Part shown: positions 5,028 to 58,015 of the stretch, in pieces
Numbering within the stretch: the first letter of the stretch is position 1
How the letters are laid out: each line of letters opens with the position of its first letter
NCBI GenBank assembly: GCA_050329935.1
Contig: JBHJOI010000067.1
Span: 13,359 to 77,358, forward strand
Reading direction: 5' to 3'
DNA: 64,000 nucleotides
Source: Thiotrichales bacterium
GTDB lineage: Bacteria; Pseudomonadota; Gammaproteobacteria; UWMA-0217
Program-made: the position numbers and the translations under genes
The notes under the pieces: generated by a model
Told to the model about the DNA's origin: nothing
Databases searched by the model: none
Seen by the model: only the letters and a program-made list of their open reading frames with translations

Positions 5028-5305
5028 TGTCTCTATCCTTGTGCTCTCTTCCGTGGCGCCGACTGGATGATCATTTCGAGCTTTGCAACGCGGCGCGACT
5101 CGTCGCCGTGCGCGCGAATCCCATCAGTCCGTCGGGATCGGGCGGGCGGGGATGTCCTGTCGGACATGTTTGAGTCGAGTCCCTCCGAAACGGGTCGGTT
5201 GTCGGGGAACTGCAAAATAACGCCGTGCTCTTGGCGCAATAGTAGGGCGGTGTGTCGAAAGGGAGTATGAACGCGTTAACAGAATGCGCGTTGCACCCGT
5301 CAAAA

Positions 5306-5329
5306 AAATAGCGCCTCTTGCGCGTGATC
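5306..5329 (-). terminator. Weak candidate rho-independent terminator downstream of fliT: GCGC-aagag-GCGC followed by TATTTTTTT on the minus strand
   Basis: 4-bp GC stem plus a 7-T run read on the minus strand. The short stem makes it marginal. Confidence 0.3.
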
Positions 5330-5552
5330 AGAACCAGGTCTCATCGGCACGCGAGGCGCGAAGGCTCGAAAGGTCGTTAACTTATTGTTATATCTATGAA
5401 ATAATGCGGAAAGTCAAATCTTGCCGGGTGGGTTCGTGAGTTGCCGCGGTGGCGACGAGATCTGCCGCTGTGCGTTTCACCCGCGGTGCGGGCCAGTGTG
5501 CGCCTCGGTACCCGGAATTCCCGCCGTTGGTCGGCGATCAGTTTGCTTTGGG

Positions 5553-5861
5553 TCACCTCAGGGTTGCGGAATAGGCGCGCAGGCCTTCGCGATTTCTTTG
5601 GTTACCGACGTACTCTTCGCGCATTCGCGTCATCGCGCCGGTCACGTAGTTCACGATCGCGGCATCCATTTGCAGAATGCGTTGCCGCAGAGGCGCCAAG
5701 TGCGCTTGCGATGCGTCGATCGCCTGAGCGTCGAGCCGATCAAGCAGCGTACCGCGTTCGTCATCCAGCTGCCGCACGCGTTCCCAGTCCTCCGATTGCG
5801 CGGCCTGAAGCATGGTCTCGCAGGTCGCTGACAATGCGCACAGCGTTTCGTACTCGGTCAT
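5553..5861 (-). CDS. fliT: Flagellar export chaperone FliT-like (about 102 aa from MTEYETL)
   Basis: Small helical protein immediately after fliS with an ATGA start/stop overlap. Order fliD-fliS-fliT is canonical. Sequence identity to FliT itself is weak. Confidence 0.5.
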   Translation of the reverse strand: MTEYETLCALSATCETMLQAAQSEDWERVRQLDDERGTLLDRLDAQAIDASQAHLAPLRQRILQMDAAIVNYVTGAMTRMREEYVGNQRNREGLRAYSATLR

Positions 5862-6271
5862 GCGGCGGCATCCTGTTTGACGCGCTGGTCCTGGGGGATG
5901 TTGTTCCACGCGCCGCGCAAGCCTTCGATCAGGCCGGCGACTTCGTCGAGCAGCGCGACGTCGCTGGTTCGGTTCGCCTCGAACAAGCGGCGTTGCATGT
6001 AGTCGTACAGCGCTTCGAGGTTTTGCGAGATTTCGCCACCTGCGGGCCGCAAGCCGGCCTTGAGCTCGACCACGATGTCGATGGCCTGCGTGATGCAGCG
6101 CCCTTTGGCCGCGATTTCATGTCGCGCCAGGTGACCCTTAGCCCGCGCGATTTTTTCCAGTGCCCCGGCGTAGAGCATGTCGACCAGCTTGTGCGGATCC
6201 GCGGCGAGTGCGTTGCTGTAGTTTCCGACCTGCTTGTAGGCGTTGGCTGCCGTGGCGTAGGGATTCATCAT
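5858..6271 (-). CDS. fliS: Flagellar export chaperone FliS (137 aa)
   Basis: N-terminal YxxxxxxxA-P-KLV-MLYAGALE motif typical of FliS. Follows fliD. Confidence 0.85.
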   Translation of the reverse strand: MMNPYATAANAYKQVGNYSNALAADPHKLVDMLYAGALEKIARAKGHLARHEIAAKGRCITQAIDIVVELKAGLRPAGGEISQNLEALYDYMQRRLFEANRTSDVALLDEVAGLIEGLRGAWNNIPQDQRVKQDAAA

Positions 6272-6425
6272 GGGTGCTCCTGAGTTTGTTGTTAGGTCCT
6301 GTTGTATTTCAATCCGCTAGCAATGACGCCCAAAGTTCGCGGCGACGCGGTCGGTCGACCGTCTCGCGTTGGACATTCCGCACGTCGTCGGGTTTGCCAT
6401 TGCGTCGGTTTGCGCGGTGTGACCG

Positions 6426-7703
6426 CTAGCTGCTAAACCGCTGGGCGAGAAACGTGCTGGTCTGGTTCAGTTTCGCGACCAGTGAGTCCATCGAACCGAA
6501 TTGTTTGCGCATGCGCGCTTCGACGCTCACCATGCGGGCCTCGAACCGCTCCATCTGAACATCGATCGATTTTTTACGACTGTTCAGGCCGTCGGTGCGG
6601 GTTTGAATGAAACCGTCGCTTTCGGTGTAACGCGCGAATGCGTCGGCGATCCGCTTGGCGAATCCGTTGTCGGTGTCGGTGAAGAACGCCACCATGCCGG
6701 CGAGGTTATCGGAGATTTTAGCGTTGGCCTTGGTGGTGTTGACGCTCATCACACCTTCTTTACTGTAGGTGATGCCGTAGTCGATCGCGGACTCGGTGCC
6801 GCCGGCCGCGTTGGTGAAATTGGCAAAGATCTGGTTGCGCAGCGACGATTCGATGCCGACCAGCATACCTTCGCCTTTCAGATCTTCGCTACGCAGGCTC
6901 TTGATGCGGCTGACCAGGCTGTTGTAGGCACTGGTGAAGTCCTGCATCGACTTGGTCATCGCGCTGTTATCAGCCGCCGACGTGACCTCGGTCGTGCCCG
7001 CGCCCTTGAGGTTGATCGTTAGCCCGTCGACCACGCCGGTGACGGTGTTCGACGCGCTGGTGACGGGGAACCCATTGACTTCGAGGACGGCGTCCTTTGC
7101 TTCCTGGGACTCGGTGAAGCCGAAGCCGGCGGGGGCAGCAATCGCGTTGGCGGTTCCAGTGTTTTTGGCGGTCAACACCAGGTAACTGCCGCCGGTCGCG
7201 TTGACGATGCTGGCGCTGATACCCGCGTTATCGCTGGCGTTGTTGATCGCGTCGCGCAGCCCCTTGAGCGAATCGTTGGTCGCGTCGATCGTCACGTCGA
7301 AGCTCGTGGTGCCATAAGTGAAGGTATGGGTGCCCTGGCCAACGGCCGTGTTCGCGTCGGTGTAGGCCTGCGATGAGACGCGATGTTGTTGCGCGAGATG
7401 CGTCACCTCGATGGTATGGCTTTCCGCCGCCGCGCCGGTGCCGGCGGTCACGGTCGCCACCTTTTCGTCGCTCGACGCGACCGTGTACTTCGAGAACTGA
7501 TCCTTGTCGCCGAGTTTTTGCGCGGCCGCCACCAGATCCGAGATCGCTGTTTTCAGCCGACCGTAGGCGCTGATTTGTACGTCGAGTGTGCTCTTCTGCT
7601 TTTGCAGCTTGGTTAACGGTTGGCGCTCGACCTGCATCAGGCCGGAGATCATCGAGTTGATGTCGAGGCCTGAGCCGACGCCCGCGGCGGTCAAGGTTGG
7701 CAT
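6426..7703 (-). CDS. fliD: Flagellar filament cap protein FliD (HAP2), 425 aa
   Basis: N-terminus MPTLTAAGVGSGLDINSMISGLMQVERQPLTKLQ is the conserved FliD N-terminal coiled-coil region. Size and context fit. Confidence 0.85.
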   Translation of the reverse strand: MPTLTAAGVGSGLDINSMISGLMQVERQPLTKLQKQKSTLDVQISAYGRLKTAISDLVAAAQKLGDKDQFSKYTVASSDEKVATVTAGTGAAAESHTIEVTHLAQQHRVSSQAYTDANTAVGQGTHTFTYGTTSFDVTIDATNDSLKGLRDAINNASDNAGISASIVNATGGSYLVLTAKNTGTANAIAAPAGFGFTESQEAKDAVLEVNGFPVTSASNTVTGVVDGLTINLKGAGTTEVTSAADNSAMTKSMQDFTSAYNSLVSRIKSLRSEDLKGEGMLVGIESSLRNQIFANFTNAAGGTESAIDYGITYSKEGVMSVNTTKANAKISDNLAGMVAFFTDTDNGFAKRIADAFARYTESDGFIQTRTDGLNSRKKSIDVQMERFEARMVSVEARMRKQFGSMDSLVAKLNQTSTFLAQRFSS

Positions 7704-8290: not shown

Positions 8291-8363
8291 ACGATATTAT
8301 TGTTGTTGTTATGTGAGGGCTTTCGTTACGTCGTTCGGTTGTTCTCTGCTCGTTTCCCTCGGC

Positions 8364-8380
8364 GCCCGCCGTGCCTGGCA
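8364..8380 (-). promoter_or_regulatory. Candidate sigma-54 (-24/-12) promoter element AGGCACG-gcgg-GCGC on the minus strand
   Basis: GG and GC dinucleotides are at the canonical 10-nt spacing with a CACG core. The -12 TT is replaced by GC, so this is weak. Confidence 0.25.
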
Positions 8381-8638
8381 GGTTCCTTTCTTCCCTGGTC
8401 GCGTCGAGGTGTTTCCACCGCGTCGCCTCATGGGGGTTATCGGACGCTAGGGTTTGCGCTTTAGCCTCGATTGGGCTGCGAACGGTGTTTGGCGACGAGC
8501 GGACCGAGCCGAGGATCGAACGGTTGAATAGGTCAGGCGGGTCGAAGCCGTAGCGTTGAAAAGAGTTTGCGCGCTTAATGACCTAGTCGGAAAAGTGTGG
8601 CGGGTCTAAATTGTCAGTATCAACTGACGGAGTTCAAC

Positions 8639-9505
8639 ATGAAGAAACTAGCATTCATCAAGCGCAGCGGCGGTCAGCACTGGGTCGGTGACGGTTTTCC
8701 GGTGCAAAGTATCTTTTCCTACAACGACATCGCGGATGAGATCTCGCCATTTCTGTTGATGGACTACGCCGGACCGACCGAGTTCGAGCCGACCACGACG
8801 CACAAGCGCGGCGTTGGCGCGCATCCGCATCGGGGCTTCGAGACCGTCACCATCGTCTATGCGGGTGGCGTGTCCCACCGCGATTCGGCCGGGGGCGGTG
8901 GCACCATTGGCGCCGGCGATGTGCAGTGGATGACCGCCGCATCGGGTTTGGTGCACGAGGAGTTTCACAGCCCCGAGTACGCGCGTCGCGGTGGTCCATT
9001 CGAGATGATTCAGCTGTGGGTCAACTTGCCCGCCAAGGACAAGATGTCTTCACCGCGTTATCAGGGCATCACCGATGCCCGGATTCCGCGCGTCACGTTG
9101 CCCAGCGATGCCGGCACGCTTAGGGTCATTGCAGGCGAATACGGTGAATCGAAAGGTGTCGCGCTGACGTTCACGCCGATGAACGTCTGGGACTTGCGAC
9201 TGAATGCGGAACGGTCTCTCTCACTCGATTTTCCGCCTGGACATACGCTCGCGGTGTTCGTCCTGCGGGGTGGTATTCGGATCGGCGCGCAGACGGTCGG
9301 TTCGGCCGAGCTGGCGGTGATGGAACGCGAGGGGACGACGCTCGCGTTCGAGACCTTGGATGACACCGTGCTGTTGTTGCTGAGCGGCGTGCCGTTGAAC
9401 GAGCCGATCGTGGGCCATGGCCCCTTTGTCATGAACACGCAAGACGAGATCGTTCAAGCCATGCGGGATTACAGTAGCGGTAAGTTTGGTCGCATGTCGC
9501 ACTAG
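8639..9505 (+). CDS. Pirin family protein (bicupin), about 288 aa from MKKLAF
   Basis: HPHRGFETVTIVYAGGVSHRDSAGG... is a typical pirin N-terminal cupin metal-binding motif. A two-cupin C-terminal extension follows. Confidence 0.85.
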   Translation: MKKLAFIKRSGGQHWVGDGFPVQSIFSYNDIADEISPFLLMDYAGPTEFEPTTTHKRGVGAHPHRGFETVTIVYAGGVSHRDSAGGGGTIGAGDVQWMTAASGLVHEEFHSPEYARRGGPFEMIQLWVNLPAKDKMSSPRYQGITDARIPRVTLPSDAGTLRVIAGEYGESKGVALTFTPMNVWDLRLNAERSLSLDFPPGHTLAVFVLRGGIRIGAQTVGSAELAVMEREGTTLAFETLDDTVLLLLSGVPLNEPIVGHGPFVMNTQDEIVQAMRDYSSGKFGRMSH

Positions 9506-28892: not shown

Positions 28893-29046
28893 CGCGTGTT
28901 TTCCAACCCCTGAAAATAAAAGCGGCGGCCGGCGCCACCGCAAGCCAACCAAAATACCGAAATTGGATGTGCGATGGAAGGCTGAGGGCCATAAAACTGG
29001 GGGTTGGTGCGCGAAATGCGTGGTTTTTTGCGCGCCTGCATGGCTG

Positions 29047-29086
29047 TGTCATCAAAACGTTATCGCAACGTCACCGTGCGGTCATA
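29047..29086 (+). promoter_or_regulatory. Pho-box-like array: four 7-bp repeats at 11-bp periodicity (TGTCATC-aaaa-CGTTATC-gcaa-CGTCACC-gtgc-GGTCATA)
   Basis: It is in the position of a -35 region upstream of btaA. The outer repeats match the PhoB half-site CTGTCAT well. Confidence 0.45.
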
Positions 29087-29131
29087 CCGCGCGGTTAGGC
29101 TGGCGCGATTTAAGGACAAGTGAGTCGCCGT

Positions 29132-30346
29132 ATGTCAGTCATTGCCGAGGCCTTGCGCCTAGCCGTACACCAGCACGCCCCGAATACCCTGATGGGTATG
29201 CAGCAACGGCTGTTCAGCGCCTGGTTCAATAGCTTTATCTATAACCAGATCTGGGAGGATCCGCGGGTGGATCTGGAGGCGCTGCAATTGACGCCAGAGA
29301 GCCACGTGTTGACGATTGCGTCGGGCGGCTGCAACGTGCTGAATTATCTCGCGCATGCCCCGGCTCGGGTGACCGCGATCGACCTCAACCCCTATCACCT
29401 CGCGTTGACGCGGCTCAAGTTGGCGGCGATGCGGCATTTGCCCGACCACGAGGCGTTCTACGATTTCTTCGGCCATGCCGACCGCGCGCATAACCTCACG
29501 AATTTCCAAACCTTCATCCGGCCACACCTCGATGCCGAGCTGGATGCGTTCTGGATGCGCCGCGACGTGTATGCTCGGCCGTTGGTGCGGATCTTCGAGC
29601 GCGGTCTCTACCGCAATACCCGCTTCGGCAATTTCATGCGGCTGCTGCATTGGATCGGCCGCCGGGGCGGGTTCCGGCCAGAGCGGTTGCTACATGCTCA
29701 AAGTCTCTATGAGCAGCAGGTGATTTTTCGTCAGCAGGTGGCGCCGTTTTTCGACAATTGGGTGGTTCGCACCCTGGGCAAGCTGCCGCTATCGGTATTC
29801 AGTCTCGGCATTCCGCCGCAGCAGTATGCGGCGATGCGCGAGCAGGGCAACCTGATCCAGCAGTACCGTGAGCGAGTCGAGCGCCTCGCCTGTCGGTTTC
29901 CTATTCGCGATAACTACTTCGCGTGGCAGGCGTTCAGTCACCGCTACGACCATGAGGCGCGTGAGGCGGTCCCCGACTACCTCAAGGCCGAGCACTACGC
30001 GAACATTCGCGCGCAACTGCACAAGGTCGATACGGTCCAGGGCTCATTGATCGACCATTTGGCGCGGCAAGCGGACCAGAGTCTCGATCGTTTCGTGTTC
30101 CTCGACGCGCAGGACTGGATGAGCGACGAGGCCTTGTGCCAGCTCTGGACGCAAATCGACCGGGTCGGTAAACCGGGCACGCGCATCGTGTTCCGCACCG
30201 CGGCCGCCGCTTCCCCGCTCGAGACGGCGTTGCCCGAGTCGCTGCGGGCGCGATTCGTGTACGAGCAGGAAACCTCGGAGGCCCTGTTCGGGCAGGATCG
30301 CTCGGCGATCTATGGCGGGTTCCATCTCTATCGCAAACCGGACTGA
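29132..30346 (+). CDS. btaA: BtaA-like S-adenosylmethionine:diacylglycerol 3-amino-3-carboxypropyl transferase (DUF3419 family)
   Basis: FNSFIYNQIWEDP block and GGCNVL motif characteristic of BtaA. Alternative GTG start at 29120. Confidence 0.75.
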   Translation: MSVIAEALRLAVHQHAPNTLMGMQQRLFSAWFNSFIYNQIWEDPRVDLEALQLTPESHVLTIASGGCNVLNYLAHAPARVTAIDLNPYHLALTRLKLAAMRHLPDHEAFYDFFGHADRAHNLTNFQTFIRPHLDAELDAFWMRRDVYARPLVRIFERGLYRNTRFGNFMRLLHWIGRRGGFRPERLLHAQSLYEQQVIFRQQVAPFFDNWVVRTLGKLPLSVFSLGIPPQQYAAMREQGNLIQQYRERVERLACRFPIRDNYFAWQAFSHRYDHEAREAVPDYLKAEHYANIRAQLHKVDTVQGSLIDHLARQADQSLDRFVFLDAQDWMSDEALCQLWTQIDRVGKPGTRIVFRTAAAASPLETALPESLRARFVYEQETSEALFGQDRSAIYGGFHLYRKPD

Positions 30347-30349
30347 TCG

Positions 30350-31033
30350 ATGGACGCCGCCGCTCAGATGGATCGACAGTACCGCCTACAACGGTATGTT
30401 TACGACCTGTCGCGCAAATACTATCTGCTGGGGCGCGACACGCTGCTCGCCGAGATCCCGCTGCGACCCCGCGAGACGCTCCTCGAAGTCGGTTGCGGCA
30501 CCGCGCGCAATCTCATTTTTCTGGCGCGAGCGCACTCCGAGGCGCGCTTGCACGGGCTTGACGCATCGGCACGGATGCTCGAAACGGCGCGGGGCAAGCT
30601 TGAGCGCCGAGCCTTGCGGGATCGCATCGAACTTCGTCAGGGCTTGGCGGAATCGGTTCGGCCGCGGGATTTCGGGCTGGCGGATCCGTTTGATCACATC
30701 CTGTTTCCATACGTACTGTCGATGATTCCCGATTGGCCGCGAGCGCTCGAGCACGCCTTGAGCGTCCTCAAGCCGGGTGGTTGGTTACATATCGTCGATT
30801 TCTCGGATCAGCAGGCGATGCCGCGGTGGTTTCGCGCGGGCTTGCTGCGATGGTTGGCGTGGTTTCACGTCCGGCCCGCACCGGATCTGCCGGATGCCCT
30901 GCACCGGCTCGCGGCTGATCGAGGGGACCACCTCGAACTTCGCCAGCTCGCCGGGCGCTACGCCCTGATTGCGCATTACCAGCGAGGGAGTAACCCCGAT
31001 GACCCAGAACCCGAACTATCGCACTTATCGTAG
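30350..31033 (+). CDS. btaB: BtaB-like SAM-dependent N-methyltransferase (diacylglycerylhomoserine to DGTS)
   Basis: Class I MTase motif I LEVGCGTARN. Directly follows btaA with a 3-bp gap. Confidence 0.75.
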   Translation: MDAAAQMDRQYRLQRYVYDLSRKYYLLGRDTLLAEIPLRPRETLLEVGCGTARNLIFLARAHSEARLHGLDASARMLETARGKLERRALRDRIELRQGLAESVRPRDFGLADPFDHILFPYVLSMIPDWPRALEHALSVLKPGGWLHIVDFSDQQAMPRWFRAGLLRWLAWFHVRPAPDLPDALHRLAADRGDHLELRQLAGRYALIAHYQRGSNPDDPEPELSHLS

Positions 31034-31808
31034 CATCTGGATTTCCGACACCCACCTCGGGTCGCGCGGTAGCAAGGCCTCGTTTCTGCTCGATTTTCTG
31101 CGTCACAACCACGCTCAGCACCTCTACCTGGTGGGCGATATCGTCGATGGCTGGCAGTTACGCAAACGTTGGTACTGGGACGCTTACCACGATCAAATCC
31201 TGCATCTACTGTTCGAGCGCGCCCAAGCGGGTTGCAAGATCACCTACGTGAGCGGGAATCACGACGAATTCATTCGACCCTTCATACACCATCGGATCTC
31301 GGCGATCGATCTCGAGGACGAGGTCATTCACACGACCGCCGACGGGCGTCGATTTCTGGTTTTGCACGGTGATCAATTCGACGGCGTCATGCAGTTCGCG
31401 CGCTGGCTGGCCAGGATTGGCGACTGGGCGTACGAACATCTGCTGGCGCTGAACACGGTGTACAACCGGTTGCGCCAATGGCTCGGCTATCCCTACTGGT
31501 CACTTTCGGCCTACCTTAAGCACAAGACCAAGTCGGCCGTGAATTTTATCTCGGCATTCGAGGAAACGCTTGCGCGCGAGGCCAAGCGCCGCGCGCTGGA
31601 CGGGGTAATCTGCGGGCATATCCACCACGCCGAGATTCGCGAGATCGACGGCGTGCTCTATTGCAACGACGGCGATTGGGTCGAGAGCTGCACCGCCTTG
31701 ATCGAGGCGTGGGATGGCACACTGCGGATCGAGCGCTGGGTCGAGGAGGCCGCGACGCGCGCGACGGCGACGGCGACGGCAACCGTTCCGGGGCAATCGC
31801 GCGTTTGA
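30999..31808 (+). CDS. Calcineurin-like metallophosphoesterase (LpxH-like / PlcP-like phospholipase C candidate)
   Basis: Metallophosphoesterase motifs DTHLG, GDIVDG, GNHDE, HGDQ and GHIHH. Overlaps the btaB end by about 35 bp. Confidence 0.7.
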   Translation: MTQNPNYRTYRSIWISDTHLGSRGSKASFLLDFLRHNHAQHLYLVGDIVDGWQLRKRWYWDAYHDQILHLLFERAQAGCKITYVSGNHDEFIRPFIHHRISAIDLEDEVIHTTADGRRFLVLHGDQFDGVMQFARWLARIGDWAYEHLLALNTVYNRLRQWLGYPYWSLSAYLKHKTKSAVNFISAFEETLAREAKRRALDGVICGHIHHAEIREIDGVLYCNDGDWVESCTALIEAWDGTLRIERWVEEAATRATATATATVPGQSRV

Positions 31809-32006
31809 GCGGCGGCGCGCGATTGCCGTCGGCTGGCCACCCGATGCGCATCGGCGACGCCCTGCGCGCTTGAGTCAACGACATGAGCGCTGGGCGTGTT
31901 CGCCGGGCGGTGGTCAAGTAGGCGCTGCGATCGCTCACGCAATCGATACGCGCACCGGGTGCTGGGGGTGGCGACTGCCGCGGTGCATTCCGGCTATCAT
32001 GGTCTC

Positions 32007-33569
32007 ATGCCAGCACTTGACCCCATCAGCCTCAGCTTGTTCGCGCGCCGCGTCGAGGCAATCTGCGCGGAGATGGGCGCCAAGCTCATGCGCGCGGCGT
32101 TCTCGCCGAATATTCGCGATCGCCTCGACTTTTCTTGTGCGTTGTTCGACGCCCGCGGCGAGCTGTTGGCGCAGGCGGCGCATATCCCGGTTCACCTGGG
32201 CAGCATGGCCTTTGCGATGCGCGATGTCGTCAACGCCGTGTCGTGGTCGCCGGGCGACCAACTGATCCTGAATGACCCGTTCCTCGGCGGCACGCATCTG
32301 CCCGATGTGACGTTGGTTACCCCGATATTCTCCGCGGACGTGTTGATGGGGTTCGTCGCCAACCGCGCGCATTACGCCGATATCGGTGCCGCGCGTCCTG
32401 GGTCGATGCCACTCGCGGAGCGGCTCCAGGACGAAGGTGTGTTGATTTCTCCGCAAAAAGTGATCGAAGCCGGCGTACCCGTCGATGCGGTCGTCGAGCG
32501 ACTGGTGCGGGCGACTCGCAACGCGCGCGATACCCTGGGCGACCTGAACGCGCAACTCGCCTGCAACCGGCTCGGGGTCGAGCGCACCCAGGCACTGCTG
32601 GCTCGGATGGGCCTTGAAGACTTCGTGCACGCGAGCGCCGCACTGAACGACTACGGCGAGCGCCTGATGCAAGCGCTCTTAATGGAACTGCCGGCGGGGC
32701 GATTCGAGTTCGAGGATGTGCTTGAGGATGACGGCTTTGGGAACGAGGATCTCCCGATCCAAGTGTGTCTTGAAGTGCGACAGAGTCGATTGCGCGTCGA
32801 TTTCACCGGTACCGCTCCTCAAACGCGCGGCAACGTGAATTGCCCGCTCGCGGTGACCGCTGCTGGCGTGTGGTACGCGCTACGGTGTCTATTGCCCGCC
32901 GAAACCCCCGCTTGCGCCGGCGTATTCAGGCCGATCGAGCTGCGGGTGCCAGTGGGTTCACTGTTGAACGCACGCTTTCCGGCGGCGGTCGCGGCGGGAA
33001 ATGTCGAAACCAGTACGCGGGTCGTCGATGTGATGCTTGGTGCTCTGGCGCTGGCACTGCCCGAGCGCATCCCGGCGGCGAGTCAGGGCACGATGAACAA
33101 CGTCGCGATGGGTGCCGACGGTGCGTCAAGCTGGGGTTATTACGAGACGCTTGCCGGCGGCACGGGCGGCGGCCCGCTCGAAGTCGGGCACGCCGCGGTG
33201 CAGTCCCATATGACGAATACCCGCAATACGCCGGTCGAGGTGTTGGAGGCGCGCTATCCCGTGCGCGTCCGCCGCTATGCGCTGCGTGCGGATTCCGGCG
33301 GCGCCGGTTTGCGCAAAGGTGGCGACGGATTGATACGAAAGTTCGAGTTTCTCGAGCCCACGGCGGTGACGTTGCTGACCGAGCGCCGCCGCCGCGTGCC
33401 CTGGGGGTTGGCGGGTGGCGCCGCCGGCCAGCCGGGACGCAACCTGTTGAACGGTCGCGAAATGCCGGCGAAATGCGAATTCACCGTGCATCCCGGCGAC
33501 ACCGTGACCATCGAGACACCGGGTGGCGGCGGCTGGGGCGTTATGCCATCAACATCGGATAACTCATGA
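32007..33569 (+). CDS. Hydantoinase B/oxoprolinase (HyuB) family protein, start at MPALDP
   Basis: Length and conserved blocks typical of HyuB-family proteins. No hyuA partner nearby. Confidence 0.7.
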   Translation: MPALDPISLSLFARRVEAICAEMGAKLMRAAFSPNIRDRLDFSCALFDARGELLAQAAHIPVHLGSMAFAMRDVVNAVSWSPGDQLILNDPFLGGTHLPDVTLVTPIFSADVLMGFVANRAHYADIGAARPGSMPLAERLQDEGVLISPQKVIEAGVPVDAVVERLVRATRNARDTLGDLNAQLACNRLGVERTQALLARMGLEDFVHASAALNDYGERLMQALLMELPAGRFEFEDVLEDDGFGNEDLPIQVCLEVRQSRLRVDFTGTAPQTRGNVNCPLAVTAAGVWYALRCLLPAETPACAGVFRPIELRVPVGSLLNARFPAAVAAGNVETSTRVVDVMLGALALALPERIPAASQGTMNNVAMGADGASSWGYYETLAGGTGGGPLEVGHAAVQSHMTNTRNTPVEVLEARYPVRVRRYALRADSGGAGLRKGGDGLIRKFEFLEPTAVTLLTERRRRVPWGLAGGAAGQPGRNLLNGREMPAKCEFTVHPGDTVTIETPGGGGWGVMPSTSDNS

Positions 33570-33901
33570 AGCATCTCATCATCATCGCCTTGCTGGGACT
33601 CGGTTTTTGGTTCTGGCTCAATAACCTGCGAGCGCGGGAACTGGCCATCAAGATCGGCGCGGAGAGCTGCAAGTCCCTGGCGGTGCAGTTCTTGGACGAT
33701 ACGGTATCCATCAATCGAATGGGCGTTGGGCGCGAACCCGAGGGGTATCTGTCGCTGCAACGCGTGTACCGCTTCGAGTTCAGTGTCGATGGCGTTGAGC
33801 GCCGCGAGGGGCGGGTTGCGATGCAAGGTATGCGGATCAAGGCGGTGCATCTCGATCACCCGGACGGACCGATCGTCATGCAGCCGCGGCTGGAGAGCTA
33901 A
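33566..33901 (+). CDS. DUF3301-like small protein with an N-terminal TM anchor
   Basis: ATGA overlap with the upstream gene. N-terminal hydrophobic helix. Family call by recollection. Confidence 0.5.
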   Translation: MKHLIIIALLGLGFWFWLNNLRARELAIKIGAESCKSLAVQFLDDTVSINRMGVGREPEGYLSLQRVYRFEFSVDGVERREGRVAMQGMRIKAVHLDHPDGPIVMQPRLES

Positions 33902-43975: not shown

Positions 43976-44203
43976 ATGTACCCACGGATCGTCTTCACAT
44001 GCGCGCTGCTCCTTGCGGCAGCGTCCGCTTTCGCCACCGAAACCAAGCCAAGCGACCCGCGCGTGGCACAGGATTGTCGCGTCGAAGGCGAATCCAACGG
44101 ATTGTCCGGGCCGGACCTGGAACAGTTCATCCGCGATTGCATCAAAGAGTTCGAGAACGCCCGGCTGTCGGGTACGACTCAGCTGCCAGGCGCACCCAAA
44201 TAA
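43976..44203 (+). CDS. Secreted small protein with one PsiF-like repeat (C-x8-GL-G-D-x3-F-x3-C-x-K), 75 aa
   Basis: Signal peptide. DCRVEGESNGLSGPDLEQFIRDCIKE matches the PsiF repeat pattern (CNAEA..GLKGDERKAFMSECLK). Confidence 0.45.
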   Translation: MYPRIVFTCALLLAAASAFATETKPSDPRVAQDCRVEGESNGLSGPDLEQFIRDCIKEFENARLSGTTQLPGAPK

Positions 44204-51029: not shown

Positions 51030-51075
51030 CCATTCCGACGCTGCGTGGCTTCAAAATGGGCGTTAATGGGTGTGG
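51018..51075. promoter_or_regulatory. 18-bp inverted repeat CACCCATTAACACCCATT / AATGGGCGTTAATGGGTG (one mismatch) with a 22-bp spacer, in the divergent region upstream of fic
   Basis: Seen directly. Overlaps the first in-frame ATG of the fic ORF. Confidence 0.4.
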
Positions 51076-51085
51076 TTTTGGTTGC

Positions 51086-52135
51086 ATGCTACGTTCAGAC
51101 ACCCTCCAGATCACCCCCGAGATCCTGAGCCTGATTGCCCGGATCGACGAATTCAAAGGCGCATGGCGGGCCTTGGGAACGCTCGCGCCCGAGCGTCTTT
51201 CAGCGCTGCGGCGGGTTACGACCATTGAAAGCATCGGCTCGTCCACCCGTATCGAGGGCAGCAAGCTGACTGACCGAGAAGTGGAGCGCCTACTCTCCAA
51301 CCTGGCCGTTCAGTCCTTCGACACCCGCGACGAGCAGGAGGTAGCCCGTTACGCCGAGTTGATCGATCTGGTGTTCAGCGCGTGGCAGGACATCCCGTTC
51401 AACGAGAACCACATCAAGCAACTGCACCAGATCCTGCGGCGCCACAGCGAAAAGGATGCGCGCCACCGGGGACAGTACAAGACCCATTCGAACAGCGTCG
51501 CCGCCTTCGATGAAAACGGAACTCAGATCGGGATCGTCTTCGAGACCGCCACGCCGTTTGACACGCCACGGTTGATGGCCGAATTGGCGTCGTGGGTGAA
51601 TGACGAGCGGGAGAAGGGGCATCTGCACCCCTTGTTGATCATTGCGATCTTCGTGGTGGTGTTTCTGGAAATTCACCCCTTTCAGGATGGCAACGGGCGT
51701 TTGAGCCGGGTACTGACGACCCTGCTGCTGATCCAGTCCGGTTACGCCTATGTGCCGTACTGCTCGCTGGAGAGTGTGATCGAGCTGAACAAGGAAGCCT
51801 ATTACTCGGCCCTGCGCCAGACACAGGGCACCATCCGCGCGGAGGCTCCCAACTGGCAGCCTTGGCTGGTGTTCTTCTTGCGTTCGCTGACCGAGCAGGT
51901 TCGGCGTTTGGAGAAGAAGGTCAAGCGCGAAAAGATCGTGCTGGCCGCACTGCCCGCGTTGTCACTGCAGATCGTGGAATTTGCCCGAGAGCACGGGCGC
52001 GTCACGATGATGGATGCCGTAAAACTGACCGGAGCCAGCCGCAACACCTTGAAGCAACACTTCCGCGACCTGACCGAGCGCAACCATCTGGAGCAGCACG
52101 GCAGCGGACGCGGTGTGTGGTACGGGCTGAAGTAA
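51086..52135 (+). CDS. Fic family protein (Fido domain, HPFQDGNGRLSR motif) with a C-terminal winged-helix domain
   Basis: Canonical Fic motif HxFx(D/E)GNGRxxR. Start could be 51056 or 51086. Confidence 0.8.
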   Translation: MLRSDTLQITPEILSLIARIDEFKGAWRALGTLAPERLSALRRVTTIESIGSSTRIEGSKLTDREVERLLSNLAVQSFDTRDEQEVARYAELIDLVFSAWQDIPFNENHIKQLHQILRRHSEKDARHRGQYKTHSNSVAAFDENGTQIGIVFETATPFDTPRLMAELASWVNDEREKGHLHPLLIIAIFVVVFLEIHPFQDGNGRLSRVLTTLLLIQSGYAYVPYCSLESVIELNKEAYYSALRQTQGTIRAEAPNWQPWLVFFLRSLTEQVRRLEKKVKREKIVLAALPALSLQIVEFAREHGRVTMMDAVKLTGASRNTLKQHFRDLTERNHLEQHGSGRGVWYGLK

Positions 52136-52441
52136 CGCAGTCGGGTTTTGGGAATCGAACTGGCGTCCGCAGCGCGCGACCTGGCAGCTCAAACCACGCT
52201 ATACCTGAGACCGAGGTCATGCTTGCTCTCGGACCTGGCAAGGCGATGGCTAGCTTTGTTGTCAACGACGATTCCCGAGAACGTGCTTCCCAGTAACGTC
52301 ATCCGCTTCGGATCGTGGCCGCTGGCACTTCTGGTTTGGCGGGTGAGAAATGCCGAGGCCGGCGCTTGGCGTTCGACGTGAGGCGTGTTTTGCACTTCGG
52401 AGTCCGACTTTCGGCGAACTTGCCTTATTCTTGTCGATGTT

Positions 52442-53911
52442 ATGACCCTAGATTTCGCCACCCTCGATGCCCTGCGCACGCACCATCCCGCGTGGCGATT
52501 GTTGCGTTCTGACCATGCCGCATTGGTGGCGAGTTTTTTGCATCGGGTTTTCGTGGCACCCAACGTGCGGGTAATGGCGGCGGCCGATCTTGCCGAGCTG
52601 CTAGAAGACGAGCTGTATGCGCTGCGCTTGCAACTGGGCGAGGCGGCGTTTCCGAAACCCGCGCTGGAGTACCTGAACGATTGGGCCGCGGCGGACAAGG
52701 GCTGGCTGCGCAAGTTCTACAAGCCCGGCACCGATGAGGCGCAGTTCGATCTGACGCCGGCCACCGAGAAGGCGATCGCCTGGTTGTTGCAACTTGCCGA
52801 GCGCCAGTTCGTGGGCACCGAGTCGCGGTTGCTCACCTTGTTTGCCTTGCTGAAACAAATGAGCGAGGGCAGCGAGACTGATCCGGAAAAGCGTATCGCC
52901 GAGCTGCACCGCAAGCGCGGCGAACTGGACGCCGAGATCGCGCGGGTGCTGGCTGGCGATGCGCCGCTACTGGACGATACGGCGCTGAAGGACCGGTTCC
53001 AGCAATTCATGCAGGGTGCGCGCGAGTTGCTCACCGACTTTCGCGAGGTGGAGCACAACTTCCGCCAGCTCGATCGGAGCGTGCGTGAACGCATCGCGTT
53101 GTGGGAGGGGAGCAAGGGCGAGTTGCTTGAAGAGATCATGGGCGAGCGCGACGCGATCGCCGATTCCGACCAAGGCAAGAGTTTCCGTGCGTTCTGGGAC
53201 TTTTTGTTGTCCAGCCGTCGCCAGGAGGAGCTGAGCGCGTTGTTGGAGCGGGTGCTGACCTTGCCGGCCGTGGCTGCGTTGCGACCGGATGCCCGCACTC
53301 GCCGCGCGCACTACGATTGGATGGAGGCGGGTGAGCACACCCAGCGCACCGTGGCGGCCTTGTCCCAGCAGTTGCGTCGCTTTCTCGATGATCAGGCCTG
53401 GTTGGAGAACCGGCGCATCATGGACATTTTGCATGGCATCGAGAGCAAGGCGCTGGCGTTGCGAGCATCACCACCTACCGGCATGGTGATGGAAATGGCG
53501 GAGTCGTGTGCCGACGTCGAGTTGGCGATGGAGCGACCCTTGTTCACGCCAGCGGTGAAACCCGTGATCAATAGTCTGATTTTGCCGGCGGGGGACGCGG
53601 ACATCGATCCGTCGGCCCTGTTCGACCAAGTGGTGGTGGACAAGGCACGGCTGACCCGCCATATCCGCCGCGCTTTGCAGGACAAGGCCCAAGTCACGCT
53701 GCGCGAGTTGGTGGCTACCCAGCCGCTACGGCATGGCCTGGCCGAGTTGGTCGCCTATCTGCAACTCGGCAGCGACAGCTTCAACGCGGTGATGGACGAG
53801 GACTCACCCGAGTCCGTGCACTGGCAGGCCCGGGCGGCGACTGGTGAACCCGTGACCCGATCCGCGCGGCTGCCCCGGGTGATCTTCATGCGCGGATCCG
53901 GAACAACTTGA
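52442..53911 (+). CDS. jetA: Wadjet JetA-like (DUF3375 / MukF-like kleisin) protein
   Basis: About 490 aa, first gene of a four-gene operon with the JetABCD size profile. Family call from architecture and recollection. Alternative start at 52385. Confidence 0.75.
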   Translation: MTLDFATLDALRTHHPAWRLLRSDHAALVASFLHRVFVAPNVRVMAAADLAELLEDELYALRLQLGEAAFPKPALEYLNDWAAADKGWLRKFYKPGTDEAQFDLTPATEKAIAWLLQLAERQFVGTESRLLTLFALLKQMSEGSETDPEKRIAELHRKRGELDAEIARVLAGDAPLLDDTALKDRFQQFMQGARELLTDFREVEHNFRQLDRSVRERIALWEGSKGELLEEIMGERDAIADSDQGKSFRAFWDFLLSSRRQEELSALLERVLTLPAVAALRPDARTRRAHYDWMEAGEHTQRTVAALSQQLRRFLDDQAWLENRRIMDILHGIESKALALRASPPTGMVMEMAESCADVELAMERPLFTPAVKPVINSLILPAGDADIDPSALFDQVVVDKARLTRHIRRALQDKAQVTLRELVATQPLRHGLAELVAYLQLGSDSFNAVMDEDSPESVHWQARAATGEPVTRSARLPRVIFMRGSGTT

Positions 53912-53930
53912 ATCGAGTATTTGAAGTCGG

Positions 53931-54626
53931 ATGAAACAAGCGTTCACCATCGAGCCGGCGACGACGGCGCCAACGCCTGATCTGTCGGTGCTGTTGATCG
54001 GTTTGCTCAAAGGCGTGCTCTACCGTGAGAGCGATGAGCGCCAATGGGCGGCATTGCTGAATTTGCAGGCGCGGGTACGGGATTTCGTCGCGGTGCTCAA
54101 TCTGGATTTGATCCTGGACGAGGCCGAGGGGTATGCCTTTCTGAAAGGTCGTCCCGAGCCGGCCGCGGACGATCCGGCGCCGCGACTGCCGCGCCTGGTT
54201 GCCCGCCGACCCTTGTCGTTTCCGGTGAGTTTGTTGTTGGCCTTGCTACGCAAGAAGCTGGCCGAGTTCGACGCGGGCGGCGGCGACACTCGGTTGGTGC
54301 TCACCCGCGACGAGATTGTCGATCTGGTGCGGGTGTTTCTGCCCGTGGGTCCCAACGAGGCCCGGTTGATTGATCAAATCGAGTCCACGATTAACAAGGT
54401 CGCCGAACTCGGCTTCCTGCACAAACTCAAACCCGCCGGCGGGGCCTCGGGGCCGCCGAGTTACGAAGTCCGACGCATCCTTAAGGCGTTTGTCGATGCG
54501 CAATGGTTGGCCGAATTCGATGCTCGACTGGCGGTGTATCGGTCCGCGCTGTCGGACCTGGTCGGTGGCCAGTCGGCGTCGCCGAGGGCGGGTGAAGAGG
54601 CCGCGGCGAGCGAGGTCGCGCCATGA
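53931..54626 (+). CDS. jetB: Wadjet JetB-like (DUF4194 / MukE-like) protein, 231 aa
   Basis: Size and position between jetA and the SMC-like ATPase. 4-bp overlap with jetC. Confidence 0.7.
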
Positions 54627-57600
54627 GTGAGTCGCAATCCCTCGCGCTGGACTTCTTAGCCGACGACGCGTTGTCGGGGTTTCGATTGACGCGTCTGGAA
54701 GCATTCAACTGGGGCACGTTCGACGGCCAGGTATGGACGCTGCAACTTGACGGCAAGAATGGTTTGCTGACTGGCGACATCGGTTCCGGTAAATCCACCC
54801 TGGTCGACGCGATCACCACGCTGCTGGTGCCGGCCAATCGGATCGCGTACAACAAGGCCGCCGGCGCGGACAGCAAGGAGCGCAGCCTGCGTTCCTACGT
54901 GTTGGGGCACTACAAATCCGAGCGCAACGAAGTCACCGGCGCGGCCAAGCCTGTGTCGTTGCGCGACCACAACAGCTACTCGGTCGTACTGGGCGTGTTT
55001 CATAACGCCGGTTACGACCAGACGGTGAGTCTGGCGCAGGTGTTCTGGATGAAGGATCCACAGGGACAGCCGGCGCGCTTTTTTCTCGGGGTGGAACGCG
55101 AATTGTCGATTTCGGTCGATTTCGCCAATTTCGGCGCCGACATCGCCACGTTGCGCAAAAAACTGCGGGCGCTGGGGGCCGATCTGCACGACAGTTTTCC
55201 ACCTTACGCCGCCTGGTTTCGCCGTCGCTTCGGCATCGAGAACGATCAGGCGCTCGAGTTGTTCCACCAGACGGTGTCGATGAAATCGGTGGGCAATCTG
55301 ACCGATTTCGTCCGCAGCCACATGCTGGAGCCGTTCGAGGTCGCCCCGCGCATTCAGGCGCTGATCGGCCATTTCGATGATCTCAACCGCGCGCATCAGG
55401 CGGTGCTCAAGGCGCAGCGGCAAGTGGAACTGCTGACGCCGCTGGTGGCTGACTGTGCTCGTCACGCCGAACTGGTGGCGGAAGTGAACCACTTGCGCCA
55501 CTGTCGCGAAAGTCTGCGCGCGCACTTCGCCCGCCTGAAGTTGGCGTTGCTCGACAAACGCCTCGGCTTGCTGGAGGACGAATGGCACAAGGCCGATGGG
55601 CAGGCGCGGCGGCTGGAGCTCGCGCGCGAGACACAAGACCAGCAAGTCGATGCGCTGAAGCAGGCCATCAGCGACAACGGCGGCGATCGCCTGGAACGGC
55701 TCGCCGCCGAGATCCGCGTCAAGGAACACCTGCGGGATGCACGCCAGTCCAAGGCCGCGCGGTATGTCGAACTCGCGGCCATGCTCGGCGAACCCAATGC
55801 GGCGGACGTTGCCGCGTTCTCCGCGCAGCGGGCGCGCTTCAAGGGTTGGCGTGAGACGCTTCGCAATCGCGATGCCGATTTGCAAAACGCACTGACGGAG
55901 CACAGCGTGAGTCTGCGCCAGGGCAAGCTGGAGCATGACCAACTCAGCGCCGAGATCGGCAGCCTCAAGCGCCGGCGTAGCAATATCGACGACCAACAAA
56001 TCCAGATTCGCACCGCGCTGTGCGCCGCATTGCGGATGGACGCCGATGACATGCCATTCGTTGGCGAGTTGATCCAGGTCCGCGAGGATGAGCGCGATTG
56101 GGAAGGTGCGGCCGAACGTCTGCTGCGAGGCTTCGGCCTGGCGTTGCTGGTGCCGGACGAGCACTACCCGCGCGTGGCCGAGTGGGTGGATGCCAGCCGT
56201 TTGCGCGGGCGTCTGGTGTATTTCCATGTGCGTCCCCGTAAGGCGGCGGAATTGCCCGGACTGCATCGGGATTCACTGGTACGCAAGCTCGCCATCAAGC
56301 CGGATACGTCCCATTACGACTGGCTGGAGCGTGAGCTTGCGCACCGTTTCGATGTCGCGTGCTGCGCGACGCAAGCGCAGTTCCGCCGCGAAACGCGCGC
56401 CATCACCCGCGCGGGCCAGATCAAGGACCCCAGCGGCCGGCACGAGAAAGACGATCGCCACCGCATCGACGACCGCGGCCGCTACGTGCTCGGCTGGAGC
56501 AACAGCGCCAAGATCGCCGCGCTGGAGGGCAAACTTCGCCAGCTTGAGCACCGCTTGGGCGAACTCGGAAGCCAGATCGGGGCGATCGAGGCCGAGCGCG
56601 GCGGACTCCAGAGTCGGCTCGACGCACTCACGCGCCTGGAGGAGTTCACGACCTTCGACGAACTCGACTGGCCGAGTGTGGCGGCGGCCATTGCCGCGCT
56701 CGAAGACGAGCGCCGGCAGTTGGAATCAGCCTCCGACATCCTCAAGCAATTAAATGAACGCCTGCGGGAACTGCGTCAAACGCTACGGGATACCGAAACC
56801 GAACTACGCACCGCGCGTGACAAGCGCGCCAAGGTGGAGCAGCGACGCTCGGATGCGCGTGAACTGCGTCAGCAGACCGCCGCGCTGATCCCGGACGTGG
56901 CCGTGGACAACGCGCTGTCAGCGACGCTGGAAGCCCTGCGCGCCGAGGCCCTGGGCGAGCATCAATTGACCGTCGAATCCTGCGATCACCGCGAGCAGGA
57001 CGTGCGCGCCTTTGTACAGGCGCGGATCGACGCGGAGGATGCGCGGCTCAAGCGCCTGGCCGAAAAGATCATCAAGGCGATGGCGTCGTTCAAGGACGCG
57101 TTCAAACTCGAAACGGCCGAGATCGACGCCAGCCTCGAAGCGGCCTTCGAGTATGAGAATCTGCTCACGCAGTTGAATCGCGATGACCTGCCGCGTTTCG
57201 TGGCACGCTTCAAGGAGCTGCTGAACGTCAACACGATCAACGAAATCGCGAACTTCAATGCACAGCTGGCGCGCGAGCGCGAAACTATCAAGGAGCGAAT
57301 CGCGCACATCAACAAGTCCCTCGGCGAGATCGATTACAACCCGGGCCGCTACATCGTGCTGGAATCACAAGCGAGCCCCGACGCCGAGATCCGTGATTTT
57401 CAGCAGGATCTACGCAGCTGCACCGAAGGCGCGGTCACGGGTTCCGAGGATGTGCAGTATTCGGAGGCCAAGTTTCTGCAAGTCAAATCCATCATCGATC
57501 GGTTTCGCGGCCGCGAGGGCTTGTCCGAGCAGGATCGACGCTGGACCGCGAAGGTCACCGACGTGCGCAACTGGTTTCTGTTCGCCGCCAGCGAGCGGTG

Positions 57601-58015
57601 GCGCGAGGACAACACCGAGCACGAACATTATTCCGACTCGGGCGGCAAATCGGGTGGGCAGAAAGAGAAACTGGCCTACACCATCCTCGCCGCTAGCCTG
57701 GCCTACCAGTTTGGCCTGGAGTGGGGCGCGGTGCGTTCGCGTTCGTTCCGATTCGTCGTCATCGACGAGGCGTTTGGCCGGGGCTCGGATGAGTCCGCTC
57801 AGTACGGCTTGAAGCTGTTCCGGCAACTCAACCTGCAATTGCTGATCGTCACGCCGCTGCAGAAGATCCACATCATCGAGCCGTTTGTATCCAGTGTCGG
57901 CTTCGTGCACAACGAGGGCGGTCGCGCGTCCAAACTGCGCAACCTGTCCATCGAGGAGTATCGGGCACAGAAGTCGGCCATCACCTCGCGGGCGACACCG
58001 GTGGTCATGCGGTGA
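54623..58015 (+). CDS. jetC: Wadjet JetC-like SMC/MukB-like ABC ATPase (1130 aa)
   Basis: N-terminal Walker [15 protein letters not shown], a long coiled-coil middle, C-terminal signature/Walker [14 protein letters not shown]. Confidence 0.85.

Follow-up and report, generated by a model that had tools for sequence, protein, structure and literature searches.

The locus analysed here raises the question of whether three genes lying behind an array of short direct repeats form an operon which remodels membrane lipids when phosphate is scarce. The DNA analysed, here called the window, is a stretch of 64 kb originating from a stromatolite metagenome; its host is a sulfur-oxidising gammaproteobacterium (Thiotrichales, Thiothrix group). 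We give a probability of roughly 85% to the reading that positions 29046–31808 are a self-contained PhoB-dependent membrane-lipid-remodelling operon of a Thiotrichales (Thiothrix-related) bacterium, with PhoB binding, Pi induction, co-transcription, substrate range and the DGTS product as its predicted properties. The original prediction had described a btaA–btaB operon with a PlcP-like gene behind a four-repeat array; all of its main features lie where it placed them, and this reading is supported. The features are the following:

29046–29090, forward strand: two Pho boxes in tandem, formed by four 11-bp units, a predicted PhoB~P site at the −35 position (read in the sequence, with shuffles and conservation)
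29096–29101, forward strand: predicted −10 hexamer TAGGCT, 10 nt past the last unit in the CTGTCAT register, with no −35 hexamer
29132–30346, forward strand: btaA, 404 aa, predicted S-adenosylmethionine:diacylglycerol 3-amino-3-carboxypropyl transferase (Pfam and rhizobial homology), with an alternative GTG start at 29120
30350–31033, forward strand: btaB, 227 aa, predicted SAM-dependent N-methyltransferase converting diacylglycerylhomoserine (DGHS) to DGTS (domains and rhizobial homology)
30999–31808, forward strand: plcP, 269 aa, predicted intracellular Mn-dependent metallophosphoesterase-type phospholipase C (homology, motifs and context)
31761–31778, forward strand: (GCGACG)3 hexanucleotide repeat (read in the sequence), which codes for ATATAT in the C-terminal tail of PlcP, a part that is not conserved

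According to the ORF list, the three ORFs downstream of the array run in the same direction; their predicted identities rest on homology to characterised enzymes. ORF 1 matches the Pfam family PF11899/DUF3419 over profile positions 4–385 of 385 (E 4e-104; 349.2 bits, cut-off 28.2) and contains the sequence WFNSFIYNQIWEDP. BtaA is 43.6% identical to the sole chromosomal homologue of S. meliloti over 96% of the length, and 41–45% identical to those of other rhizobia; at the single btaA locus of S. meliloti/Sinorhizobium a class I SAM methyltransferase gene (btaB) lies directly downstream. The assignment of gene 1 to BtaA on the basis of its hallmark sequence is thus borne out by the DUF3419 match (349 bits) and by the identity of about 44% to rhizobial BtaA. 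The most likely start of btaA is the conserved ATG at 29132, which corresponds to the 404-aa gene call on the source contig and replaces the GTG at 29120. Only 3 nt separate the btaA stop from the btaB start. ORF 2 contains class I SAM methyltransferase domains (Methyltransf_12/25/11 in Pfam), and its product is 45.3% identical to the BtaB of S. meliloti (E 2e-57) and 47% identical to that of R. leguminosarum, which agrees with its earlier description as BtaB, a class I SAM methyltransferase.

ORF 3 contains a calcineurin-like metallophosphoesterase domain (Pfam). Its product is 55.2% identical to P. aeruginosa PA3219 (E 2e-97) and 48.8% identical to S. meliloti SMc00171 (E 3e-89), in both cases across almost the entire length. 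It is as close to each of these two validated PlcPs as they are to one another: their mutual identity is 46.6% in our alignment and has been printed as 46% (PMC8528852). The published criterion for PlcP is a BLASTP E value below 1e-40 against the MED193 PlcP; with PA3219 and SMc00171 as stand-in queries, gene 3 falls under this value. The identity of the two loci was checked by the genes around them: PA3219 lies beside a GT1 glycosyltransferase gene and cyaB, and SMc00171 beside genes for a luxR-type regulator and an acyl-homoserine-lactone synthase (sinR/sinI). The protein has the full metallophosphoesterase metal-binding set (DxH, GD, GNH, H, GHxH): residues D17, H19, D47, N87, H88, H123, H207 and H209 are aligned with PA3219 and SMc00171 and are invariant among 33 homologues. 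Concerning the start, both the gene calls and the identical protein in the databases use ATG 30999, so plcP overlaps the 3′ end of btaB by 35 nt in another frame. The ATG, its Shine–Dalgarno sequence and the overlap with btaB are conserved in the related loci L001–L007. The original prediction of a calcineurin-like metallophosphoesterase gene overlapping btaB therefore holds except for its start at TTG 30969, which was dropped in favour of the conserved ATG.

The C-terminal tail of PlcP had also been singled out as unusual. The (GCGACG)3 repeat and its ATATAT product are present, but the significance given to them is not supported: past about residue 248 the tail varies in sequence and length (254–273 aa) in all relatives, and it has low confidence in the structure model. 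A functional role for ATATAT was rejected, since no relative keeps the tail.

The array itself consists of the units GTGTCATcaaa, ACGTTATcgca, ACGTCACcgtg and CGGTCATaccg. The four 7-bp direct repeats proposed upstream of btaA are present exactly as described, TGTCATC at 29047, CGTTATC at 29058, CGTCACC at 29069 and GGTCATA at 29080, with an exact spacing of 11 bp. When compared with CTGTCAT the units agree at 6, 4, 4 and 6 of 7 positions, the inner two (ACGTTAT and ACGTCAC) being the weakest. A Pho box is defined by at least two CTGTCAT-like 7-bp direct repeats with 4-bp spacers, set some 10 bp ahead of a −10 element and lacking a −35 element, and this is the arrangement found here. The architecture is statistically unique: four successive copies of GTYAY-N6 are found at a single place in the 64-kb window, also when one mismatch is tolerated, and in none of 100 dinucleotide-preserving shuffles. 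A scan of the window for CTGTCAT-N4-CTGTCAT with up to three mismatches gave 2 matches against 3.0 expected, and no second GTCAY-N6-GTCAY pair was found in the window.

The array is also conserved. At least three phased units are found at the same position, 61–76 nt upstream of btaA, in 9 of 10 btaA promoters of the Thiothrix lineage; the proposed check of repeat conservation in related Thiotrichales thus shows position, phase and core to be kept. Together with the shuffles, this rules out a chance origin of the repeats. A three-unit array has only two further matches in 1.26 Mb, preceding a gene for a PstS-like phosphate-binding protein (PF12849) in L010 and an OlsB-like gene (PF13444) in L002. 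The link of the motif to phosphate genes in this lineage is based on one pstS-like promoter. Downstream of the units, TAnnCT (TAGGCT, TAGCCT or TAACCT) is kept at the same distance in L001–L008, and a consensus scan of the intergenic region upstream of btaA found no complete sigma-70 −35/−10 pair.

The operon structure is conserved as well. Of 80 related loci, 75 contain a btaB homologue, nearly always directly 3′ of btaA. The plcP gene overlaps btaB in the window and in L001–L007, and the Pho-box array lies upstream of the operon. The group btaA–btaB–plcP moves together: its neighbourhoods differ across L002–L007, and the genes flanking it in the window are shared with L001 only. Salinivenus (Rhodothermia) has this gene order too, with plcP likewise linked to btaAB, and the same cassette is present in the culturable T. 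lacustris DSM 21227 (L005). In L008, also of the Thiotrichales, an agt-like GT4 glycosyltransferase gene lies between plcP and btaAB. No glycosyltransferase gene is present in the operon of the window or its flanks. No intrinsic terminator was found 3′ of plcP, so that transcription may run on into the hydantoinase B gene that lies 150 nt downstream, and no structured RNA in the leader or operon matched Rfam at E ≤ 1.

These features are consistent with the following mechanism. Under Pi limitation, PhoB~P would bind the four 11-bp direct repeats as two head-to-tail dimers; the repeats would stand in for the −35 element, and PhoB would bring RNA polymerase to the TAGGCT −10 hexamer 10 nt downstream. 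A single transcript would carry btaA, btaB and plcP, with translational coupling suggested by the 35-nt overlap of the last two genes. PlcP would split membrane phospholipids, releasing diacylglycerol and a phospho-alcohol and allowing the phosphorus to be recycled; BtaA would move the 3-amino-3-carboxypropyl group from SAM to diacylglycerol, and BtaB would methylate the amine three times to give the phosphorus-free betaine lipid DGTS. Induction of the operon by phosphate starvation and DGTS as its product are what we infer from the promoter and the enzymes. The genes phoB, phoR and pst are absent from the 64-kb window, and the presence of the regulator in the host is thus an assumption.

The step for which the databases suggest another enzyme is that of PlcP. 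The identical protein and most homologues are named ‘UDP-2,3-diacylglucosamine diphosphatase / LpxH’, which would make gene 3 a lipid A pathway enzyme with only an incidental adjacency to btaAB. Also, the nearest solved structures are those of LpxH: it provides the best matches in a PDB sequence search, and the predicted fold of the structure model, including the metallophosphoesterase core and the helical lid insertion, is closest to LpxH, which accounts for the top 15 structural matches. However, gene 3 scores 40.3 bits against the NCBIfam LpxH equivalog NF003743 (cut-off 134) and 34.4 bits against TIGR01854 (cut-off 190.35), and is only 25% identical to E. coli LpxH over just 119 aa (E 5e-5), compared with full-length identities of 49–55% to the characterised PlcPs PA3219 and SMc00171, which themselves bear the same mis-annotation. 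LpxH also differs in its identity range (19–25%), its genomic context and its predicted substrate, whereas in several lineages plcP sits with btaAB or with an agt-like glycosyltransferase gene. The comparison of PlcP with LpxH which had been proposed as a check thus groups gene 3 with the PlcPs; an LpxH identity is effectively refuted by homology and we regard it as highly improbable. Judged by homology, gene 3 is a PlcP and not an LpxH, and the locus illustrates clearly how PlcP is widely mis-annotated as LpxH. With PlcP as the third enzyme, the product of the pathway could still differ. The identity of BtaA and BtaB to characterised enzymes is only 41–47%, so the lipid could be other than DGTS (e.g. 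an un- or partly methylated homoserine lipid), and the glycosyltransferase gene of L008 shows PlcP to be of use to more than one pathway; PlcP might mainly feed other users of diacylglycerol, such as glycolipid synthesis. Against this, BtaA and BtaB match characterised enzymes over their full length, the btaA–btaB pairing is kept in nearly all of the 80 loci, the operon and its flanks are without a glycosyltransferase gene, and every characterised bacterial BtaAB system makes DGTS (PMC3972451); another lipid or another main use of the diacylglycerol is therefore improbable.

DGTS made with the help of PlcP remains the preferred reading, and the doubt that weighs somewhat more, though still unlikely, concerns the regulator: the site may be real but serve another member of the OmpR/PhoB family or a signal other than phosphate, which would place the operon outside the Pho regulon. 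Direct repeats of 11-bp period are shared by the OmpR/PhoB family as a whole, two units of the array (the inner ACGTTAT and ACGTCAC) are degenerate relative to CTGTCAT, and the window has neither pho genes nor further arrays of this kind. PhoB is favoured, on the other hand, by the GTCAY core, which is the recognition core of PhoB, by the motif before the PstS-like gene in L010 and the OlsB-like gene in L002, and by comparable boxes before rhizobial btaA and P. aeruginosa plcP, whose promoters are reported to be PhoB-controlled. The products of all three genes spare phosphorus, which also argues for a phosphate signal.

A further gene had been offered as a link to phosphate. An ORF of 75 aa does exist at 43976–44203, and its spacing C-x8-LxG-x6-F-x3-C presumably recalls a PsiF repeat (PF07769), a resemblance we take by eye. 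No Pfam match was found for it at E ≤ 0.001 nor at E ≤ 1, and no phased repeat array or Pho box lies upstream of it, which leaves the PsiF remark unsupported; this identity was rejected.

Other bacteria are already known to have this system, and the locus differs from the described clusters in gene order and lineage. For Phaeobacter sp. MED193, clusters of plcP, btaA and btaB with Pho boxes were described in 2015 as ‘type 1’, a type which further marine Alphaproteobacteria share (Sebastian et al. 2016, ISME J, PMC4796936); in MED193, PlcP supplies the diacylglycerol for DGTS and deletion of plcP abolishes DGTS (PMC4796936). Compared at the level of the published description, our locus has the same three genes in one cluster preceded by Pho boxes. 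Unlike in MED193, where plcP comes first, the order here is btaA–btaB–plcP, with plcP last and overlapping btaB by 35–50 nt; also, MED193 is an alphaproteobacterium, whereas the host here is a Thiotrichales gammaproteobacterial sulfur oxidiser from a stromatolite. In S. meliloti, btaAB and plcP are regulated by PhoB (PMC3972451). The proteins are similar to those of our locus (PlcP 48.8%, BtaA about 44% and BtaB 45% identity) and its btaA also has a GTCAT-type box upstream (CGTCATCAAAGTGTAGC), but its plcP is unlinked from btaAB and adjoins sinR/sinI, whereas the three genes studied here form one predicted transcription unit. The closest characterised PlcP (55.2%) is that of the P. aeruginosa operon PA3219 (PlcP)–PA3218 (Agt1). 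According to the literature, this operon has an annotated Pho box and is induced by phosphate limitation; its promoter likewise contains four units in 11-bp phase (CTGTCAC, CGGTCGC, CTGTCAC and GTTTCAC). In contrast to our locus, plcP is the first gene there and is paired with a glycosyltransferase making glycolipids (MGDG, GADG), not with BtaAB.

No report of DGTS or btaA in Thiothrix or Beggiatoa, and no lipid data for the Thiotrichales, were found in the literature searched, and the supplement of PMC4796936 does not mention either genus. The finding extends a well-characterised strategy for sparing phosphorus, PlcP plus BtaAB under predicted PhoB control, to the Thiotrichales and leaves the understanding of the pathway unchanged. 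A Pho-box model specific to this lineage, with CGTCAY units ahead of TAnnCT, could serve for mapping the Pho regulon of Thiothrix. Beyond this, we consider it rather probable, at a lower confidence than the reading of the operon itself, that Thiothrix-type sulfur-oxidising Gammaproteobacteria make DGTS under phosphate starvation from a compact btaA–btaB–plcP cassette which relocates as a unit with its Pho boxes; T. lacustris DSM 21227, as a culturable carrier of the cassette, makes this prediction testable. Stromatolites, sulfidic springs and phosphorus-removing wastewater sludge are habitats in which Thiothrix-type sulfur oxidisers are prominent. If the prediction is true, part of the environmental DGTS in sulfidic and carbonate settings would come from bacteria other than Alphaproteobacteria.

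Three co-directional ORFs lie downstream of a repeat array. The window has ~62% G+C, and its base composition shows no break at the operon. The array and the ORFs, with the product lengths of the source-contig gene calls, are as follows:

29047-29086, four-unit repeat array
29132-30346, + strand, btaA (BtaA, 404 aa)
30350-31033, + strand, btaB (BtaB, 227 aa)
30999-31808, + strand, plcP (PlcP, 269 aa)

The naming of the first two genes as btaA and btaB in the original prediction holds. The product of btaA carries WFNSFIYNQIWEDP and is a full-length match to the BtaA family of Pfam, DUF3419 (E 4e-104, 349 bits). By tblastn against a plasmid collection, whose 3.7-Mb S. meliloti record includes the chromosome, it shares 43.6% identity, over 96% of its length, with the sole homologue in that record, and 41-45% with those of other rhizobia. 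The ATG at 29132 lines up with the start codons of relatives. A class I SAM methyltransferase gene lies directly 3' of the btaA homologue in S. meliloti and R. leguminosarum; the second gene of the operon encodes a protein of this class by domain search, with 45% and 47% identity to the respective BtaB proteins. Its homologues are found in 75 of the 80 related loci, across many phyla and nearly always directly downstream of btaA. Concerning the S. meliloti record, CP090106.1 (L081 and L084) is labelled in PLSDB as 'S. meliloti Ak57 plasmid pSymB'; it is evidently a mislabelled chromosome, since it measures 3.72 Mb and bears the chromosomal genes sinR/sinI, plcP and btaAB. Its btaA gives a two-piece match and has no entry in the gene table, which points to a frameshifted gene or a pseudogene in this assembly.

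The third gene encodes a calcineurin-like metallophosphoesterase by domain search, which could belong either to PlcP or to LpxH, the UDP-2,3-diacylglucosamine diphosphatase of the lipid A pathway. Two experimentally characterised PlcP enzymes were taken from public records as references and their identity was checked via neighbouring genes: downstream of PA3219 of P. aeruginosa come agt1, a GT1 glycosyltransferase gene, and then cyaB, and SMc00171 of S. meliloti adjoins genes for a luxR-type regulator and an acyl-homoserine-lactone synthase (sinR, sinI). The identity computed between the two agrees with the printed value of 46% (PMC8528852), so the right sequences were used.

Pairwise comparisons of the third gene product and the references (identity, aligned length, E-value)
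Gene 3 and PA3219: 55.2%, 250 aa, 2e-97
Gene 3 and SMc00171: 48.8%, 246 aa, 3e-89
Gene 3 and E. coli LpxH: 25%, 119 aa, 5e-5
PA3219 and SMc00171: 46.6%, 249 aa, 3e-86

The architecture of the protein is LpxH-like: its AlphaFold model (pLDDT 82.6) has a metallophosphoesterase core and a two-helix lid, the best structural matches of the model are all LpxH (19-24% identity), and the top PDB sequence match is P. aeruginosa LpxH (E 1.6e-6). An identical 269-aa database protein is also annotated "UDP-2,3-diacylglucosamine diphosphatase"; this is the usual mis-naming, found likewise in the records of PA3219 and SMc00171. An assignment to LpxH itself is rejected, as the protein scores 40 and 34 bits against the two LpxH equivalog models of NCBI (cut-offs 134 and 190) and reaches only 25% over 119 aa, against 49-55% to the PlcP enzymes. 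Together, these identities, scores and structural matches make it a PlcP-family member, as had been anticipated, with LpxH-like architecture. Its metal-binding residues are all invariant among 33 homologues.

The overlap of this gene with the end of btaB also stands, at 35 nt, while the gene boundary is corrected to 30999. Seven loci of the Thiothrix lineage have the ATG of plcP, with a purine-rich Shine-Dalgarno sequence, within the btaB 3' end, and btaB runs 35-50 nt past this ATG in another frame; together with the gene calls and the 269-aa protein, this sets plcP at 30999-31808. The C-terminal tail that had been described as unusual, (GCGACG)3 encoding ATATAT, is particular to the window sequence, and the tails of PlcP relatives vary in both length and sequence.

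The array upstream of btaA reads as predicted: four 7-bp units (TGTCATC, CGTTATC, CGTCACC and GGTCATA, separated by aaaa, gcaa and gtgc) at exact 11-bp spacing. The pattern GTYAY-N6 x4, with one mismatch permitted, occurs only once across the two strands of the 64-kb window and in 0 of 100 dinucleotide-preserving shuffles; the three-unit version gives two overlapping matches (0.05 expected), both of them the btaA array, and no second array of this type is present elsewhere in the window. In the CTGTCAT register, the units GTGTCAT, ACGTTAT, ACGTCAC and CGGTCAT agree with 6, 4, 4 and 6 of the 7 consensus positions. TAGGCT is located 10 nt downstream of the last of these, and a TAnnCT hexamer occupies the equivalent position in L001-L008 (Thiothrix-lineage loci and one further Thiotrichales locus). 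The promoter scan found no sigma-70 -35/-10 pair upstream of btaA, which fits the expectation for an activator-dependent promoter. No phoBR or pst genes are found among the ORFs checked (~17 to 59 kb of the window).

Conservation of the array was scanned across all 80 related loci (1.26 Mb; three-unit pattern, at most one mismatch). It is found 61-76 nt upstream of btaA in nine of the ten Thiothrix-lineage loci, and outside these promoters only two further matches occur: one, in L010, upstream of a gene for a PstS-like phosphate-binding protein (PF12849), and one, in L002, upstream of a divergently transcribed gene for an OlsB-like acyltransferase of the ornithine-lipid type (PF13444). Comparable elements are present upstream of rhizobial btaA (CGTCATCAAAGTGTAGC) and, as four phased units, upstream of P. 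aeruginosa plcP; these promoters are PhoB-controlled or contain a Pho box according to the literature (PMC8528852, PMC3972451). In the Thiothrix genome L010, the PstS-like gene (8311-9185) follows btaAB at a distance of 2.5 kb; upstream of it are TGTCACaacaCTGTCATattcAGGTTC and TAAGGCT, a -10-like element, and this promoter can serve the lineage as a reference Pho box. In L002, a gammaproteobacterial genome from a marine rock biofilm, the OlsB-like GNAT acyltransferase gene (~2000-2990, - strand) is divergent from btaA and has its own Pho-box-like pair, CCGTCATgcgcTTGTCAT, which suggests a control region common to betaine-lipid and ornithine-lipid genes.

The argD-btaA intergenic region also contains two terminator-like hairpins with T-runs:

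28912-28941, - strand, hairpin in the argD leader, GCGGTGGCGCCGGCCGCCGC then TTTTATTTTC
29008-29028, + strand, terminator-like hairpin with T-run directly upstream of the Pho boxes

This stretch is kept in L001, and neither it nor the operon region has an Rfam match. The hairpins may represent an argD leader/attenuator, or an insulator between divergent promoters.

The operon is flanked upstream by argF and argD on the opposite strand and downstream by hydantoinase B and DUF3301 genes, flanks common only to the window and L001, its closest relative; L002-L007 contain btaA, btaB and plcP together in different neighbourhoods. The hydantoinase B/oxoprolinase gene (31959-33901, + strand) is separated from plcP by 150 nt, in which no recognisable terminator was detected, and is followed by the overlapping DUF3301 gene; neither of its flanks yielded a hydantoinase A gene. 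The Thiotrichales locus L008 (1878-5870) has four genes running the same way, in the order plcP, agt-like GT4/GT1 glycosyltransferase gene, btaA, btaB, with a two-unit box (GCGTCATtctcCTGTCAC) upstream of plcP; it is a combination of the glycolipid type of cluster with the betaine-lipid type. The btaA-btaB-plcP order is repeated in two Salinivenus genomes (L074 and L078, ~3880-7120), whose PlcP proteins are 51-54% identical to that of the window and which have GTAAT, GTCAT and GATAA-type repeats of 11-bp period upstream of btaA (e.g. CGTAATCcaggCGTAATCgtcaGATAACG).

Elsewhere in the window, the ORF at 43976-44203 (+ strand, 75 aa), originally read as PsiF, is not supported as such, having no Pfam match at E <= 1 and no Pho box upstream. 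Its N-terminus is signal-peptide-like, and its sequence shows a Cys-x8-LxG...F-x3-C pattern, which by eye we take to be PsiF-repeat-like; the longer ORFs surrounding it are probably spurious. Also, a Fic-domain gene and a complete type I Wadjet anti-plasmid system (JetA-JetD) extend over 51056-59190 (+ strand), each a very strong PADLOC match:

51056-52135, + strand, SoFic-like Fic-domain protein gene
52385-53911, + strand, JetA
53931-54626, + strand, JetB
54623-58015, + strand, JetC
58012-59190, + strand, JetD

In the established pathway, PhoB~P switches on transcription, PlcP splits phospholipids into a phospho-alcohol and diacylglycerol, to which BtaA transfers the homoserine moiety of SAM, and BtaB trimethylates the product to DGTS, a phosphorus-free betaine lipid (PMC4796936, PMC3972451). 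Sebastian et al. (ISME J, online 2015) describe six types of plcP neighbourhood, of which type 1, e.g. in Phaeobacter MED193, has a Pho box and the gene order plcP-btaA-btaB, and is genetically verified (PMC4796936). The window operon is the same system, with the same three genes and a Pho box; it differs in that plcP is last rather than first and overlaps btaB, and in its host, a Thiotrichales bacterium from a stromatolite metagenome. A literature search for DGTS or btaA in Thiothrix or Beggiatoa gave no mention of either genus among its 15 top-ranked papers. The observation behind the original prediction is confirmed and its interpretation supported, with small corrections. The anatomy of the operon agrees with every step of the pathway, from which we infer its regulation, co-transcription and product: PhoB~P would activate transcription of btaA-btaB-plcP, PlcP would supply diacylglycerol, and BtaA and BtaB would convert it to DGTS.
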